This document shows positions 1 through 55,498 of a stretch of 64,000 nucleotides of DNA, one piece after another; position 1 is the stretch's first letter, and each line of letters starts with the position of its first letter. The stretch is taken from the IMG/VR virus record IMGVR_UViG_3300014204_000110; one strand, 5' to 3'. Source of the stretch: a virus (taxonomy: Duplodnaviria; Caudoviricetes). The notes below the pieces were generated by a model, which saw only the letters and a list, made by a program, of their open reading frames with translations, was not told the DNA's origin and searched no databases. The position numbers were made by a program, and so were the translations under genes.

Positions 1-603
1 TTTGATTCTCTGAAAATTAGCATTATCTATTTTACGACCTGACATTGTATCAAGCTGTTCTAGATAGCTCATTCCAGCCGTTCCAATACCAATAAATTTG
101 AAGAAAATATTATATTTTGATATTTCCTTCATATATTTAGTTGTATCACTTCGATCACTGTTATCACCATCTGTTACAAAAATAACAAATGTTGGTATTT
201 TTGATAGATTTTGTTCGACGTAATAGTCAAAAATCTTTGCTATAACAGGACAATATTCTGTACCATTCCATTCTGCTTTTGGAACAATATTTTTATTTAC
301 GAAATCGACGATATTACCAAGACCGACATTTGAGCATGATTCACATCGTCCTGAAAATCTGAATGTTTCCATTTCACCATTATCATCGAATTTAAGTGCA
401 AGTGGCATCATTCGTTCAACTGTTTTCTGAACAGTTCCATTTGAAAATTCATCTTGCATACTTCCAGAAACGTCAATCACAAATGCAACTCTTGCTTGAG
501 TTACTGCAAGTGATTTTGTTTTAAGAACAGCTTCAAATGTCTTTTCCCGAAGTTTGATCCCATCAGTAACTTCAGTTTTCTTACCAAAATCAAATAGTCC
601 CAT
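1..603 (-). CDS. vWA domain protein (TerF-associated vWA type), 3' end beyond the window
   Basis: Not in ORF track. ATG at 603-601 with AAGGAG RBS; reads MGLFDFGKK...VAFVIDVSGSM (MIDAS DxSxS)...FDDNGE...FVIFVTDGDN...FIGIG...LEQLD, open to position 1. Confidence 0.85.
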   Translation of the reverse strand, partial: MGLFDFGKKTEVTDGIKLREKTFEAVLKTKSLAVTQARVAFVIDVSGSMQDEFSNGTVQKTVERMMPLALKFDDNGEMETFRFSGRCESCSNVGLGNIVDFVNKNIVPKAEWNGTEYCPVIAKIFDYYVEQNLSKIPTFVIFVTDGDNSDRSDTTKYMKEISKYNIFFKFIGIGTAGMSYLEQLDTMSGRKIDNANFQRIK

Positions 604-2591: not shown

Positions 2592-3189
2592 TTATTTAAT
2601 TATTTTTTGAAGTATTATATTATTAGTTTTCATAGAATTTATTAGATTATTTGATTTTAATAATATTTCATCTTTAGATTTAACTACTGTTGGACAAAAA
2701 TCACAAACACATATATGATCATGAATATGTTTAACTTCTTTTAATGATATTCTTACGGCTAAATCTGGTCCTACACCAGAATATATTATATTTTCAAGTG
2801 TATGTATATTTAATGCATTATCTTTAAATTTCCATTGTAATTTATTTATTTGATAATCTAATTGTGGTATTTCTTTAAAGAATACTTCAAAATTAAATCT
2901 ATGCATAATATTTCCTATTATTTTAAGTTTCTGTAAGTTCAGCAATTCTTTTAAATATATGACTTATATTATCGCATATACCATTGAGTTGTCTTTTAAA
3001 TTCAGGATCATCTGGAAGATGTAATTGGCGTTTTAAACTTCCATCAAGATCTCCTACTGAATCAAGTAAAAGTTTATTTATCTGTTCAGTATAACTATCT
3101 TTGTCATATGCTATTTTAGGAGTCATTTCTGGATTAGTATAACAAAGTATTGCTCTTATAGTTGCAGCTGTTGTATAAATAGTTTTCAT
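2592..3189 (-). CDS. Two hypothetical proteins (2592-2945, 2923-3189)
   Basis: Overlapping ORFs in the operon. Confidence 0.55.
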
Positions 3190-3211: not shown

Positions 3212-3440
3212 TAATATAATTATAACGTGTTGTTACACCAAAGAAACTTACCCATTGGGTGGAAGTCTTTAACTTCACTTACTCCTATTTTACCAACAGC
3301 ACATCATCTATATATACCTTGAATAATTTTTATGTATTATGAATTACCCATTAGATATTTGTAGACATATCGCACTAGTTGGTAGTTCGTCTCACTCATT
3401 AAAGATGGCTACTTCTAAGCCTACTATTATAATTATATTA
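3212..3440 (-). ncRNA. Structured RNA mimicking the 23S rRNA L11-binding (GTPase-associated) domain, with a ~150-nt insertion
   Basis: Minus strand reads AGUAGGCUUAGAAGUAGCCAUCUUUAAUGAG (3425-3395) ... GGUGUAACAACAC (3239-3227), closed by a 15-bp stem (3426-3440 with 3212-3226). Confidence 0.75.
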
Positions 3441-3877
3441 AGATACTAATCTCATCGAGATCCCATCGACAGCATCGCTGCAGGATTGTCCTTGTTTGAT
3501 AACCCAATGTAAAAGATCGGATTAGATATGCATAATTTTAAATAGAATATACTCTTATTGCCACGTATGATATTACATATCCCGTAAAGAGAAGGTACAT
3601 TCTTCTTGTATAGAGTGTGCTGAAGCCATAACAATGGTTACATAACTCCACTATATTCTATTAAAATATAATAGCACGACTTATACGGCTGATAGATTTA
3701 TCACAATTAAGTGGCCAGACGGATAGCCTGGTTATTTTCTTATCGATGTAAGGATTAATTGTCTAACTATTTTTTCCGCGTTTGCCTGTCGTGCATGTAA
3801 ATATACAATAGTTCAGAATTTCACTGTAAACCTTACGTTTCAATAAAGACTATAACTGTTATTGTATATTTATTTTT

Positions 3878-4507
3878 TTAGTTATCAAATACTTGTTCAG
3901 CGGTCATTCCAGATACCTTACTTTCTGAAACATCTGCAACAACAGTAGTTCTTTTTCGTTTATCTGAAGCATCTGCAGCTCTTGCTAATGCTCCAATTGC
4001 ACCTGCAACTTTACTATTTGTACTATCATATGCTGGTTTAGAATCTAGTTCTTCACCAGCTATATTTAAAGATTCTATAACAGCGTTACAAATACCTTTA
4101 TTAGTAATGTTTTTAAATTGTTTTGTTCCATTCTTTTCATTAAGAAAAGAATTAATTGAAATAAATTTGTTTTTATTTGGTTGCTTAATTTCTCTTGATT
4201 GTATTGTAAGAGGACCCATTATATGACTTAGATCAGCTGTTGCAAAATCTCCATCTATTTGTACATTATCTGCTCTGAATATAATTGTTTCTCCAAAACC
4301 AATAATTCTTACATCATTACCATTCTTATTTGTGCTGAGATCTCCAATCCAACTTCTTAATTGGCTTGCTACAACATATTTATGGTCATCTGTAAGAAGT
4401 CCAGTAACTAAACTAATGTTACCAAGACCATCGATCATTTCAACACCTTTAACTTTGAACATAAAAACCTCCAAATAAAGAGTAATATAAAATGCTGTTA
4501 CAAACAA
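3878..4507 (-). CDS. Hypothetical protein (likely start ATG at 4462 after GGAGG RBS)
   Basis: Long ORF with RBS. Confidence 0.65.
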   Translation of the reverse strand: MFVTAFYITLYLEVFMFKVKGVEMIDGLGNISLVTGLLTDDHKYVVASQLRSWIGDLSTNKNGNDVRIIGFGETIIFRADNVQIDGDFATADLSHIMGPLTIQSREIKQPNKNKFISINSFLNEKNGTKQFKNITNKGICNAVIESLNIAGEELDSKPAYDSTNSKVAGAIGALARAADASDKRKRTTVVADVSESKVSGMTAEQVFDN

Positions 4508-4935
4508 TTTATAACAGCTGGAATTTTATCTGTAATCGAAAGAATTAAAGGACAATAACTTTCTCTACTTTTTGTATAACCACACATAAGTATCTCTGGA
4601 ACGTTTTTACATCCAACAACCAGAAGACTATGTGAGTTATTATTTTTAATAAATGCTACATACCCTTTAGATATATCAAACATATCTTTAAGATAAACTG
4701 TATTTTTGTTACTTACAAATCCAATGATTTTAGTAAGTAGTAATTTATCTTTAAATGACAGTAAAATGTCTTTTATACATGAAGGATCTTTTTGTAACAT
4801 AGACCAATATCTAGATATGTGGTCGTTTTGTCGATCAAATGTTATTGTATTTTTCCAAACGTTCTCACCATTCGGACATATATTTATTATTTTTTCTTTA
4901 CTACAAATTAACTTAGTTATTCCTCTGCGCGCCAT
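4498..4935 (-). CDS. Hypothetical protein
   Basis: ORF coupled to 4917-6821. Confidence 0.6.
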   Translation of the reverse strand: MARRGITKLICSKEKIINICPNGENVWKNTITFDRQNDHISRYWSMLQKDPSCIKDILLSFKDKLLLTKIIGFVSNKNTVYLKDMFDISKGYVAFIKNNNSHSLLVVGCKNVPEILMCGYTKSRESYCPLILSITDKIPAVINCL

Positions 4936-51994: not shown

Positions 51995-52474
51995 ATGAGT
52001 TCAAAAACTTGTAAAACATGTAATATTGAAAAAGATGAATCGGAATATTATAAATATAAAAATACATATTGTCGAAGAGATCATTCGTATAAAGAATGTA
52101 AAAAATGTTATAATCTTAGAGTTAAAAAATATTGTGAAAATAATAAAGAAAAAAAAAGAAAATCCAGTAAAATATGGTGGGAAAATAATAAAACTAGTAG
52201 AAATATAATACGTAAAGAACAACGTTTAAAACGAAATTATGATTTATCTTTAATTGATAGAGAAAATATTTTAAAAGAACAAGATTATAAATGTAAAAGT
52301 TGTAATACTGATTTAAAAAATTTAATATCTTATCATATACATATTGATCATGATCATACTACAAATGTTATTCGTGGAATATTATGTAGAGGATGTAATA
52401 TTGCTTTAGGTTTATTAAATGATGACCCAGATAAAATATTAAAATTATATAATTATTTAAAACCCTTTAAATAA
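51995..52474 (+). CDS. Free-standing endonuclease VII-type HNH (putative homing endonuclease)
   Basis: CKTC...CKKC N-terminus; CKSC...HIDHDH...RGILCRGCN..LG...D. Confidence 0.88.
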   Translation: MSSKTCKTCNIEKDESEYYKYKNTYCRRDHSYKECKKCYNLRVKKYCENNKEKKRKSSKIWWENNKTSRNIIRKEQRLKRNYDLSLIDRENILKEQDYKCKSCNTDLKNLISYHIHIDHDHTTNVIRGILCRGCNIALGLLNDDPDKILKLYNYLKPFK

Positions 52475-52559: not shown

Positions 52560-54396
52560 ATGGGCGCAAGTCCTGCTAATTACCAGAATACTGAAAGCGC
52601 AGTTGATGGTATTAAATCCACTTATAACGCTTCGGCAGGAACAGATATCGTCGCTACCATTGACGGTATCTTAATTGGAAATTTGAATGGTATAAGTTTC
52701 AGTACAACCCGTGAATAGCTTGCGGCCTTATATAGTAATATATATTGAATAACGCCATTAATTGCTGGAACATCCTTATAGGACAATCAGCAGCTACTTA
52801 ATTGTAGTTCAACGACTATCCCGAAAGGGAGTAGAGTTTAGTAAACTCGAAACATGGCGGTTCTTTGAAAGAACGTGATATAGTCTGAACTTACTGGTAA
52901 CAGTAAGAGAATGTATGGAAACGATACATTCGTAACATATTTGGAGAAAGCTCCGATTTATACACTGGGTAAATAACACTGCCCACTTTTAGAGTAATCT
53001 AATTGTAAAAACATTGGGTGAATTCGGTGAAGGTCTGAAAAGAATAATACCGAGCCAAGACCTTGGTACACTAAGGTAAGGTGTAGAGACTACTGGAGAG
53101 ATATAGTTCTCTTAATAACCAGTCCAGCGCCCAACATCCTTATAGGATGAAGAGATAGTCCAAAATAAAGAGTGTAGATGCCGTTTCATTCGGCAGAGGT
53201 AAGCGTAAGCAACATTGCGCTTGTAAAATTCTGTAAATTGCTGGGATAACCTTATAGGTCAATCAGCAGCCAAGCTTAAGTAGAAATACTTTTGAAGGTT
53301 CAGAGACTATTCCGAAAGGAAGTAGGGTCTAAGTAGACTCGAAAGACAGAATAGTTAGAAATAACTAATGATATAGTCCGATCTTTATGGTAACATAAAG
53401 AGAATATATGGAAACGATATATTCGTAACACAAATGGGTCATGCTGGTTCGTTAATCTCAAAGTAAAAGGGATCGTATGTTAGTAATAACATATTGCAAC
53501 TCGTCAAATTGCTGGAATCTCCTTAGAGTCTTAAATACTTAGAAATAAGTGACAATTTTAAGAATTGGACAATCAGCAACTAAATTCATAAGTAATTATG
53601 ATAAATGCTCAGAGACTAAATGGCGAGATCCTCTATCTAGAGGAATAAGATATAGTCCAGACTACAACCGAAAGGGCTTGAGAAATCAAGAGTAGTAAAG
53701 TTACGAACTTTGATAGACATGCATTATATGATATAATGCAAGGTACATTTCAGGACAGTAATGCAGGACCTGCAGATAGGTATAAATATTATGCTAAAAC
53801 TACAGATATTCCTGCTGGTGGACGAAGTTTACTTTTAGGTAAACAACATCTTGACGCATTAGGAGCACTTGGTTCACAAAAATCAATTGCAAACTATAGC
53901 GATCAACTTCCACCAATGACTATCACTTTAACTTCAATGAATGAGTATGGAAATGTTAGTGCAATGCACATACTTGGAGTTGAATTGATTAATGAGGGTT
54001 CTGGTGTGTCAATTGATGATATTGTGACAGAAACGCAGATGAACGGTTGTCTGCCTCAGTAGTAATACTGATGATAAAACATCACCATATGCGGGAATAA
54101 CCTTAGAGTCTTAAGTACCAAAGTGTAACAATCTTAAGAATTGGTCAATCCGCAGGAAAGACTCGAAAGAGAATCCTCAGAGACTTTATGTGATGCTCCT
54201 ACTTGTAGGATGAAGATAAAGTCCGATCTTAATAGAAATATTAAGCTAACACATTTGGACGTTTGTAGCTCGTGGTATTATCGGTTGGAAACCAATCTCT
54301 CAGAATGGTGGAAATGTGAATATTAAAGCAGATGTACTTGCTCAGATGAATAATCTTACAGCAGTACAACAGGCTCAATACAACGGGCTCAATTAG
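52560..54396 (+). CDS. Tail tube protein (238 aa) split by five group I introns; exons 52560-52712, 52944-52970, 53171-53206, 53437-53458, 53701-54040, 54258-54396
   Basis: AGGAGG RBS; joined exons total 717 nt in frame: ...SFSTTR|EKAPIYTLG|SVDAVSFGRGKR|GHAGSLIF|TNFDRHAL...DQLPP...ETQM|TFVARGI..., collinear with the paralogue at 54464 (THRRKAPVDVIG...GSMIFIVFDR...DQLPP...MSYIARDI); directly downstream of the sheath. Confidence 0.92.
52713..52943 (+). ncRNA. Group I intron 1 (231 nt, no ORF)
   Basis: 5' splice site after U with P1 CCGU/GCGG; AATTGCTGG / AATCAGCAG; P7 GACTA / TAGTC; terminal G. Confidence 0.9.
52971..53170 (+). ncRNA. Group I intron 2 (200 nt, no ORF)
   Basis: P1 UGGGU/GCCCA; P10 ACACU with AGUGU; P7 GAGACTA / GATAGTCC; terminal G. 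Confidence 0.9.
53207..53436 (+). ncRNA. Group I intron 3 (230 nt, no ORF)
   Basis: P1 AAGCGU/GCGCUU; AATTGCTGG / AATCAGCAGCC; TTCAGAGACTA / GATATAGTCC; terminal G. Confidence 0.9.
53459..53700 (+). ncRNA. Group I intron 4 (242 nt, no ORF; splits a Phe codon T|TT)
   Basis: P1 AUCU/GGAU; P10 GUAA with UUAC; CTCAGAGACTA / GATATAGTCC; terminal G. Confidence 0.88.
54041..54257 (+). ncRNA. Group I intron 5 (217 nt, no ORF; splits a Met codon AT|G)
   Basis: P1 GCAGAU/GUCUGC; ATGCGGG / AATCCGCAG; CTCAGAGACTT / GATAAAGTCC; terminal G. Confidence 0.88.
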
Positions 54397-54463: not shown

Positions 54464-55498
54464 ATGGCAACGTTTTTCGATAAAATTAAAAATAATATAT
54501 TTACTCAAGTAGAGGAAAATGTCTCTGCTAATAGTCAGCCATATTTGGGTGGATCGCTTGGTCCAGCAGAAGTTAATCCATTTGCTGAAGATCCAGTAGT
54601 AGATTTTTCTAAGAGTAATACATCATATAGTGGTAGTGATTGTACTGTTATGGTACAATTGAATAATAAACTTATTGTCTTAGGTAATCTAGAGACATTC
54701 TCACATTCTACGCATCGACGAAAAGCACCAGTAGACGTAATTGGACGATCTCACGCAAAAGGTTTTGTTAGTGGAAGTCGTGTTGTAGCAGGAAGTATGA
54801 TATTTATTGTATTTGATAGATCTCCATTGTATGATGTTGTTAAAGAAATTAATTACGTTAGAAATGCTTCTGATAGACGTACATCACCATTACCTGATCA
54901 ACTTCCACCATTAGATTTAATATTACTATTTCATAATGAATATGGACATAGAAGTTTAACTAGAGTCTATGGGGTAGAATTTGTTGATGAGGGTCAGGTT
55001 CATAGTATTAATGATCTTTATACGGAATGTACAATGAGTTACATTGCTCGTGATATTGATCAGATGATTGCTTATGATGAACTTAGTGATTTTAAAAATA
55101 TGTTATTTGAACGTCAGGTTCGAGGACAATTTGTAGATAATAAATTTACTGGATTACTTGAATATAAAGCAAGAGTTGAAAGAGAACTTTCTGATTGTGA
55201 AAAAGTAATTTCTGGTATTGATATGGAAACAGATAGACGTGCTGTTGCTGGAGTTTTTACATTAAGTGCTTCATATTGGTTATCTAGACTATCTTATGGA
55301 AAAGATTATGTAACACGCGAAGAACTTAATAAAGAAAAAACAAAACAACTTAAAATAAAAGAATATCTACTTACTGAACTTGAAAAGATTAATCAACAAG
55401 TTAGAATTTATGAACAGAACGTTAATGTTGGTTTTAATGCTCAACACACTGATGCTGGTAATGTACAATTTGATTACTTATCTCATGCGAGTAAATAA
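54464..55498 (+). CDS. Tail tube paralogue (tube initiator/baseplate-proximal) with coiled-coil extension
   Basis: SYSGSD...RKAP...GSMIF.VFDR...DQLPP...NEYG...GVEF..EG...YIARD. Confidence 0.75.
   Translation: MATFFDKIKNNIFTQVEENVSANSQPYLGGSLGPAEVNPFAEDPVVDFSKSNTSYSGSDCTVMVQLNNKLIVLGNLETFSHSTHRRKAPVDVIGRSHAKGFVSGSRVVAGSMIFIVFDRSPLYDVVKEINYVRNASDRRTSPLPDQLPPLDLILLFHNEYGHRSLTRVYGVEFVDEGQVHSINDLYTECTMSYIARDIDQMIAYDELSDFKNMLFERQVRGQFVDNKFTGLLEYKARVERELSDCEKVISGIDMETDRRAVAGVFTLSASYWLSRLSYGKDYVTREELNKEKTKQLKIKEYLLTELEKINQQVRIYEQNVNVGFNAQHTDAGNVQFDYLSHASK

Follow-up and report, generated by a model that had tools for sequence, protein, structure and literature searches.

The window analysed here is a stretch of 64,000 nucleotides (nt) of viral DNA (Duplodnaviria; Caudoviricetes; IMG/VR record IMGVR_UViG_3300014204_000110), and its minus strand carries, at 3440-3212 and with exact boundaries, a putative RNA unit of 229 nt that copies the GTPase-associated centre (GAC) of 23S rRNA, comprising helices 42 to 44 (H42-H44; Escherichia coli positions 1051-1108). 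Judged from sequence comparison, the element belongs to a large family of RNAs in phages and in horizontally transferred tRNA arrays, and the evidence supports the view that it is a free-standing copy of H42-H44 under selection for its tertiary fold. On balance we favour a stand-alone RNA gene that rebuilds the GAC, most likely a free uL11-binding mimic that would act as a sponge or decoy.

An earlier note on this DNA had described a minus-strand element at 3212-3440 with a match to H43, a match to the H44 loop, a 15-bp stem replacing H42 and a U.U-A set at the equivalents of positions 1072, 1092 and 1099, and every one of these features was found where it had been placed. Compared with the E. 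coli 23S reference, which was taken from NC_000913.3 (positions 1051-1108 are GCCAGGAUGUUGGCUUAGAAGCAGCCAUCAUUUAAAGAAAGCGUAAUAGCUCACUGGU), the H43 copy shares 19 of 21 nucleotides with 1059-1079, the changes being U1061A and C1072U, and it aligns to the H43 positions of the covariance model R1 described below. The linker UUUAAUGAG lies directly 3′ of the H43 copy, and the equivalent of A1080 is absent. After a gap of 164 nt comes the H44 loop copy GUGUAACAAC (3238-3229), which agrees with E. coli GCGUAAUAGC at seven of ten positions and differs at 1092, 1097 and 1099. The closing stem, P1, consists of 14 Watson-Crick pairs and one G.U pair. Positions 1072/1092/1099 read U/U/A in the window as opposed to C/C/G in E. 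coli, the partners of the second tertiary contact, G1071/G1091-C1100, are kept, and U1060, A1077, G1087 and A1088, which are invariant in the family, are present; 1082/1086 reads U.U. The 15-mer GGCUUAGAAGYAGCC, searched with up to two mismatches, occurs once in the window against an expectation of 0.04. Single-sequence folding of the element gave -56.4 kcal/mol (z = -3.4) and shows the closing stem, the top of H43 and a long internal hairpin. Similarity to its relatives, of which the closest (locus L276) is 79% identical over 229 nt, ends at the ends of the closing stem, and the element therefore behaves as a discrete module.

IMG/VR contains 26 exact matches to an 18-mer taken from the H43 copy, about 23 of which share the same order of parts, namely a stem, H43,.U.UAA.GAGU, a variable insert, UUUGG(U)GUAAYAACAC and a stem. 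The C1072 version has at least 120 matches in the same database, and most of those listed carry inserts and end in UUUGGCGUAAnAGCACAC. A pattern-based catalogue lists 101 full elements, no two of them identical, which measure 82-416 nt and have inserts of 34-360 nt; the family consensus is.U.UAA.GAGU for the linker and UUUGG(C/U)GUAAnA(G/A)CACAC for the 3′ module. Like these relatives, the window element has a closing stem and, between GAGU and UUUGG, an insert with its own basal helix. Covariance model R1 was trained on an alignment of 26 other phage members, from which the window and its subfamily were left out, with a structure derived from that alignment by RNAalifold, which recovered P1, both parts of H43, the basal helix of the insert and H44; 16 of the 23 pairs show compensatory changes. 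R1 detects the window element with 70.2 bits (E 3.4e-17) over model positions 1-154 of 154 (3219-3433, minus strand), and this is its sole significant match in the 64-kb window. The model has 89 matches in loci L001-L100 and 27 in 100 loci fetched via the 3′ motif alone; the members it finds score 24-116 bits, most of those with the full architecture reaching about 60-116. At each pair of P1, 6-16 sequences across the family have both sides changed. More than 100 diverged copies keep the fold with compensatory changes, while neither their flanks nor their inserts are related. The way in which members were found influences some counts, and positions fixed by the search patterns were excluded as evidence. 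The sequence of the element, covariation at the level of its fold and its membership of the family are in this way directly observed.

Of 72 non-identical members aligned to the model, 51 have C.C-G at the base triple and 20 have U.U-A, a single odd row being probably misaligned, so that position 1072 covaries with 1092-1099 in 71 of the 72; this is the result of the test for covariation across phage homologues that the earlier note had proposed. The pattern-based catalogue agrees and holds a few possible intermediates (C/C-A, C/U-A and U/C-G). When members are grouped by homology of their inserts, one cluster of 20 C-type members also contains the U-type members L006 and L026, and the U-type L022 clusters with the C-type L101 and L104. 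Because these lineages hold both states, the distribution of the triple reflects more than one ancient split. Conn, Gutell and Draper reportedly showed experimentally, in 1998, that the U.U-A set restores folding. In 23S rRNAs that carry U1072, which come from Candidate Phyla Radiation (CPR) bacteria, DPANN and other archaea, U-A occupies 1092-1099 in 20 cases, U.G in five and C-G in one. A molecular dynamics study of ribosomal three-way junctions (PMC2952862) describes, for E. coli, a cis Watson-Crick/Hoogsteen C1072/C1092 pair with a C1072(N4)-G1099(O6) bond, and a second contact between G1071/G1091 and G1071-C1100. The claim that the element reflects selection on tertiary structure and is not a decayed rRNA fragment is borne out, since the triple covaries in the family, switches as a unit within insert lineages and parallels the behaviour of real 23S rRNA, where U1072 mostly accompanies U1092-A1099.

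The same conclusion is suggested by the remaining positions of the copy. At positions not fixed by the search, G1059, U1060, A1077, A1084, A1085, A1088, G1093 and A1098 are invariant in 72 of 72 members, and U1083 (70), G1091 (71), C1100 (71) and C1102 (69) are nearly so, while 1061 and 1097 vary freely. Several pair types occur at 1058-1080 and at 1082-1086, the latter as U-A, C-G and A-U. Members found through the 3′ motif alone show covariation of the H43 stem, with C1064-G1074 replaced by A-U in L222, L237 and L193 and G1062-C1076 by U-A in L173. They retain G1071, position 1072, A1073 and the pairing of the H43 stem; the loop 1067-1070 varies in them, and A1067G is found in about seven of 17. 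Since A1067-A1070 vary and the fold is kept, selection appears to act on the fold and the protein platform and not on the adenine that contacts factors and thiostrepton.

The place at which the copy is interrupted can be read from the large-subunit (LSU) rRNA alignment, in which the bacterial consensus at 1087-1090 is GAgu; as the phage GAGU matches it, the insert enters right after 1090. The window element has no contiguous three-way junction of about 58 nt, a structured insert splitting H43 from H44. The LSU models of Rfam give no match to the window even at E values up to 10, because of this 164-nt interruption. An Rfam scan, which the earlier note had also proposed, returned neither a named family nor an LSU match for the element, whereas relatives that carry no insert match LSU models above the gathering threshold (see below). 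No other similarity to 23S rRNA was found around the element, and there are no rRNA gene flanks. The weak Rfam matches to GA-cis (E 0.77), an S15-Flavobacteria leader (E 9.5) and TUG1_3 (E 5.7) fall far below gathering thresholds and were set aside as chance.

Coordinates of the features of the window element, with those of the open reading frame that follows it
Feature	Position	Strand	Description
P1 closing stem, 5′ strand UAAUAUAAUUAUAAU	3440-3426	-	Stands in for H42
H43 copy GUAGGCUUAGAAGUAGCCAUC	3424-3404	-	Corresponds to E. coli 23S 1059-1079 GUUGGCUUAGAAGCAGCCAUC; loop UUAGAAGUA, U at 1072
Linker UUUAAUGAGU	3403-3394	-	About 1081-1090: 1082-1086 turn, G1087, A1088
Insert domain, 151 nt	3393-3243	-	Structured; enters at 1090/1091
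Insert basal helix GAGAC / GUUUC	3393-3389 / 3247-3243	-	Three compensatory pairs; helix covaries family-wide
Joining strand GAACU	3388-3384	-	Invariant across five lineages
Long hairpin Pa	3383-3292	-	Conserved internal loops UGAUGUGC, CAAGGU and AUCUA; compensatory changes
Joining strand AAAAUAGGAGUAAGU	3291-3277	-	Conserved; invariant joining strand given as AAAAUAGGAGUAAG
Hairpin Pb (GAAGU/ACUUC)	3276-3262	-	Compensatory changes
Hairpin Pc (ACCC/GGGU)	3260-3250	-	Compensatory changes
H44 copy UUUGGUGUAACAACAC	3242-3227	-	UUUG, then GUGUAACAAC (1091-1100) and AC (1101-1102)
P1 closing stem, 3′ strand GUUAUAAUUAUAUUA	3226-3212	-	Pairs with 3440-3426; followed by UAUAUUUUCU
Downstream 88-amino-acid open reading frame	2923-3189	-	ATG at 3189, 23 nt after the element; context only

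The earlier note had put about 150 nt between the two parts of the copy. A gap is indeed present, but it has to be redescribed as a structured and conserved insert at 1090/1091. The window insert is common to four other lineages, represented by L276, L009, L013 (with near-identical relatives) and L015, and the consensus fold of the five is a four-way junction with compensatory changes in the basal helix and in hairpins Pa, Pb and Pc. The insert showed no similarity to Rfam families or rRNA at E values up to 10, and a blast comparison with E. coli 23S gave nothing beyond a 9-nt match at E 2. A scan of IMG/VR with an insert motif returned three members that were already known, the remainder being chance matches in coding sequence. 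For the subfamily, RNAalifold also drew H44 in a different register (GUGU/ACAC, loop AACA), which we rejected because it sets C1092 opposite A1101 in C-type members and because 1092 covaries with 1099.

Inserts of other family members provided further observations. The inserts of L176 and L183 (IMG/VR) contain the sarcin-ricin-like GUACGAGAGGA, the loop-like sequences being UUGUACGAGAGGAUC and CAGUACGAGAGGAGA, to be compared with E. coli UAGUACGAGAGGACC, so that the two halves of the factor-binding site are both represented in some members; in the window, no sarcin-ricin motif was found with up to two mismatches allowed. In L031:816-977 (minus strand) and L143:4635-4794 (plus strand) a second inserted hairpin, close to 1078-1080, comes right after H43's 3′ strand, and the usual insert at 1090/1091 is present as well. 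The IMG/VR phage contig L111 carries a compact copy with no insert, GGAUGUUGGCUUAGAAGCAGCCACUCAUUUAAAGAGUGCGUCAUAGCUCACUAGUC, which has non-rRNA flanks and a C at the A1095 position.

The family is associated with tRNA genes. A tRNA gene lies within 1 kb of the family member in 61 of 100 loci, always on the same strand, and within 100 nt in 40 of 100; L276 lies inside an array of 15 tRNAs. Adjacency to tRNA genes is a tendency of the family and not a strict criterion, and most relatives are presumably released from array transcripts by processing. The interpretation was amended in this respect, in that the family is associated with tRNA arrays and the window copy is not. The window element is an atypical member, with no tRNA neighbours, a U.U-A triple, a conserved four-helix insert and an 88-amino-acid (88-aa) open reading frame (ORF) downstream.

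Compact stand-alone copies of the GAC, about 75 nt long and with no insert, were found in L279, L285, L296, L301, L327 and L356 and in about 45 other loci on genome contigs. They carry the U.U-A triple, a closing stem and the conserved flanks GAACCUGG...CCAGCGGAGUCCC, and they occur next to long tRNA arrays in the chromosomes of cyanobacteria and in one plasmid; in L279, more than 25 tRNAs lie just upstream of the copy. Two of them match Rfam LSU models above the gathering threshold across H42, H43 and H44, L296 with 59.4 bits to RF02540 positions 1170-1239 and L285 with 55.1 bits to RF02541 positions 1077-1160. A pattern search of three Nostocales genomes recovered the stand-alone copy only, the resident 23S genes being probably masked or divergent. 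Long horizontally transferred tRNA arrays in Anabaena are induced by ribosome-targeting antibiotics and aid survival (PMC8421152), and we found no mention of an rRNA-like gene in that account of the arrays. A contig of a Gastranaerophilales metagenome-assembled genome has, in the midst of tRNA genes at L329:1325-1397 (plus strand), a Pistol ribozyme (RF02679, 64 bits), and an insert-bearing member of the family is present on the same contig.

The window phage is large and uncultured, with 30% G+C, and its major capsid protein shares about 31% identity with those of jumbo phages resembling Bacillus phage 0305phi8-36. The element is situated in a stretch of about 690 nt that has no convincing ORF, among small minus-strand genes that include a dCMP deaminase, a UDG-superfamily protein and a vWA-TerF-like protein. 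About 440 nt of this stretch (3441-3877, minus strand) lie upstream of the element and contain just a 60-aa frame opening with TTG; no Rfam match was found in 3441-3600. The downstream 88-aa ORF belongs to no Pfam or PHROG family and has no homologue beside other family members; AAAAAGG occurs between the end of the element and its start. The 213-kb IMG/VR phage contig L173 (212-1166 and 3627-3785) encodes homologues of the two upstream window ORFs 4498-4935 and 3878-4507 (31% and 41% identity), upstream of its own family member, which has an unrelated insert. Clustering of neighbouring genes revealed no recurrent protein gene, the largest cluster being present in six of about 100 loci, and the small clusters comprise HTH/endonuclease-like, vWA-TerF-like and TerD proteins. 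Genes of the vWA-TerF-like or TerD type lie at most 4 kb from the RNA at window 1-603 (minus strand), L055:2751-3515, L075:4806-5609 and L012:8490-9194, cases too few to be called an association. Elsewhere in the window, five tandem group I introns (RF00028, 59.9-84.7 bits) occupy 52690-54245 (plus strand) with very short spacers, between the ORFs 51995-52474 and 54464-55498.

Scans for transcription signals around the element found 15 promoter-like sites against 12.2 expected, and a -10 match at 3431-3426 falls inside the A-T closing stem. No terminator was detected 3′ of the element by a terminator scan, and a run of at least four T residues follows the stem in 23% of family members compared with 6% in the background. 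DNA of the window is present in one landfill metagenome run and one groundwater metagenome run. For the compact relative L356, metatranscriptome contigs from three runs in two studies cover the element together with its non-rRNA flanks at low depth; the deeply covered pieces are true 23S rRNA of other organisms, and carry-over of DNA is possible.

We infer that the element is transcribed, that it binds a ligand and that it affects the infected cell. The RNA would be made within a longer transcript, together with its neighbours, and would fold on its own, its 5′ and 3′ ends meeting to rebuild the three-helix GAC of 23S rRNA with P1 in the place of H42, while the four-helix insert at 1090/1091 would project away from the mimic. 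Such a free RNA would display the GAC surface off the ribosome. The isolated rRNA domain 1051-1108 (58 nt) is the classical high-affinity uL11 site, binding L11 tightly and also thiostrepton, and L11 is required for the activation of RelA. The likeliest ligand of the phage RNA would accordingly be uL11, possibly with uL10, and the RNA a sponge for free uL11, a possible result being L11-poor ribosomes that are unable to activate RelA; more generally it may serve as a decoy for molecules that recognise the GAC fold. The partner is probably a host component, because no protein gene recurs beside the RNA. The family keeps the fold and the sequence of the H43 stem, while A1067 is relaxed and A1095 rarely so; these two we take to be the nucleotides that touch factors, tRNA and thiopeptides.

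Several findings weigh against a free uL11-binding mimic. The window holds no tRNA gene in its 64 kb, so that the usual neighbours of the family are absent, and the lack of tRNAs together with an ORF 23 nt downstream leaves room for a role in cis. No RNA run is among the sequencing runs that match the window. With U.U at 1082/1086 and position 1080 absent, the copy is imperfect in the turn and in lower H43. RNAalifold favours alternative local pairings, in which the G before 1091 pairs with C1102, and as the insert moreover enters within the 5′ strand of H44, the geometry of the junction and the fit of uL11 and uL10 are uncertain. Finally, a sponge for one abundant ribosomal protein demands a high copy number of the RNA.

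The main rival, to which we give a minor though real share of the probability, is that the RNA serves as a decoy for agents directed against the GAC, be they enzymes or small molecules, such as toxins of defence systems or competitors and thiopeptides, sparing the ribosomes for phage messages. In its favour, the family travels with tRNA arrays, arrays like those that hold the compact copies are antibiotic-induced and aid survival in Anabaena (PMC8421152), and an attacker of the appropriate kind exists in Tre23, which ADP-ribosylates H44 of 23S rRNA at 1095-1098 and blocks the GTPase of EF-G (PMC8661411). The sarcin-ricin loop, which GUACGAGAGGA in the inserts of L176 and L183 resembles, is likewise a classic target of toxins at the factor-binding site, but the window copy has no such motif. 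Furthermore, genes for toxins, antitoxins or defence do not recur beside the RNA in about 100 loci, and A1095 and A1067, the likely sites of attack or contact, vary in a minority of members. We know of no anti-phage defence that targets the GAC, which also counts against this rival.

Three other explanations are less likely than either a uL11-binding mimic or a decoy for attackers of the GAC. Direct binding of translational GTPases (EF-G, the EF-Tu ternary complex, IF2, RF3) or of RelA, independently of uL11, would retune translation or the stringent response, and we regard it as improbable. These factors dock at the GAC, some members join it to sarcin-ricin-like elements and so unite the two halves of the factor-binding site, and EF-G reportedly binds oligoribonucleotide mimics of both domains. 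Against this, A1067 is not conserved in the members found via the 3′ motif and A1095 varies in a few, titration of an elongation factor would harm phage translation too, and the window copy carries no sarcin-ricin-like element. The chances are slimmer still that the element is a cis-acting leader of the 88-aa ORF, to whose 5′ untranslated region a GAC-binding protein would bind to control translation or stability: the same-strand arrangement, with AAAAAGG between the element and the ATG, and the lack of tRNA neighbours fit such a leader, but there is no conserved downstream gene, relatives of the same subfamily precede a tRNA (L276) or unrelated sequence, the ORF has neither a family nor homologues next to other members, Rfam leader families are not matched and the closing stem is away from the ribosome-binding site. 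That the element is functionless, whether a captured and decaying fragment of host 23S rRNA or a chance resemblance, is very hard to credit, because, even if phages occasionally pick up host DNA and Rfam has no dedicated family, the diverged copies keep their fold by compensatory changes amid unrelated flanks and inserts, no rRNA sequence flanks the element, a precise closing stem substitutes for H42 and the triple switches as a unit.

Comparison with known systems delimits what is particular to the RNA. It resembles the GAC of 23S rRNA in H43, in the 1081-1088 turn with G1087 and A1088 (though with U.U at 1082/1086), in the H44 loop with G1093 and A1098, in the G1071.G1091-C1100 partners and in the U.U-A triple, which is the form found in CPR and DPANN 23S rRNAs; in contrast to it, the element is phage-encoded and lies outside any rRNA gene, replaces H42 by an unrelated 15-bp A-U stem, contains a 151-nt insert at 1090/1091, has A in place of U at 1101 and is missing 1080. 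The leaders of ribosomal-protein mRNAs, such as the L10 leader (RF00557), are likewise RNAs outside the ribosome that imitate a protein-binding site of rRNA, and the L10(L12)4 leader imitates part of the same rRNA region. However, such leaders regulate in cis, ahead of ribosomal-protein operons, and reproduce only part of the site, whereas the window RNA copies a whole tertiary domain and is not next to ribosomal-protein genes; no Rfam leader was matched at E values up to 10 beyond the chance-level S15 hit. Like tRNA-like RNAs, Y RNAs, GOLLD and ROOL, members of the family are carried by large phages, often on the same strand among tRNAs, and have modular variable domains, but the core of the family is a copy of an rRNA domain and not a tRNA-like or nanocage-type fold; none of these RNAs, GOLLD and ROOL included, and no other curated phage RNA of Rfam matched the element at gathering thresholds or at E values up to 10. 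The compact cyanobacterial copies share with the window element the 5′ and 3′ modules, the U.U-A triple and the closing stem, as well as the family's association with tRNA arrays, and differ from it in their length, the lack of an insert, their conserved flanks and their location in cellular replicons.

We found no description of a family of GAC-mimic RNAs in Rfam 15 or in the searchable literature, and relative to published knowledge the family looks like a new kind of phage RNA. We would venture, as a broader proposal to which we assign somewhat less than even chances, that free-standing copies of the factor-binding site in large phages and transferred tRNA arrays, consisting of the GAC and sometimes the sarcin-ricin element, are unrecognised counter-measures directed at translation, which strip uL11 and silence RelA or absorb immune toxins, and that their exchangeable inserts, of which the four-helix domain of the window element is an example, are second modules recruiting partners. 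Should RNAs of this kind engage uL11 or further ligands of the GAC during infection, they would represent an unknown route by which phages manipulate the ribosome, imitating one of its functional centres in trans, and would link phage tRNA arrays to control of the stringent response and possibly to defence toxins that hit the ribosome. Studies of RNA tertiary structure and of thiopeptides would also gain a natural collection of evolved GAC variants, covering the two states of the triple as well as differences in loop and insert. In cyanobacteria, the compact copies would constitute an unnoticed non-tRNA gene within long tRNA arrays, of which that of Anabaena is induced under translational stress.

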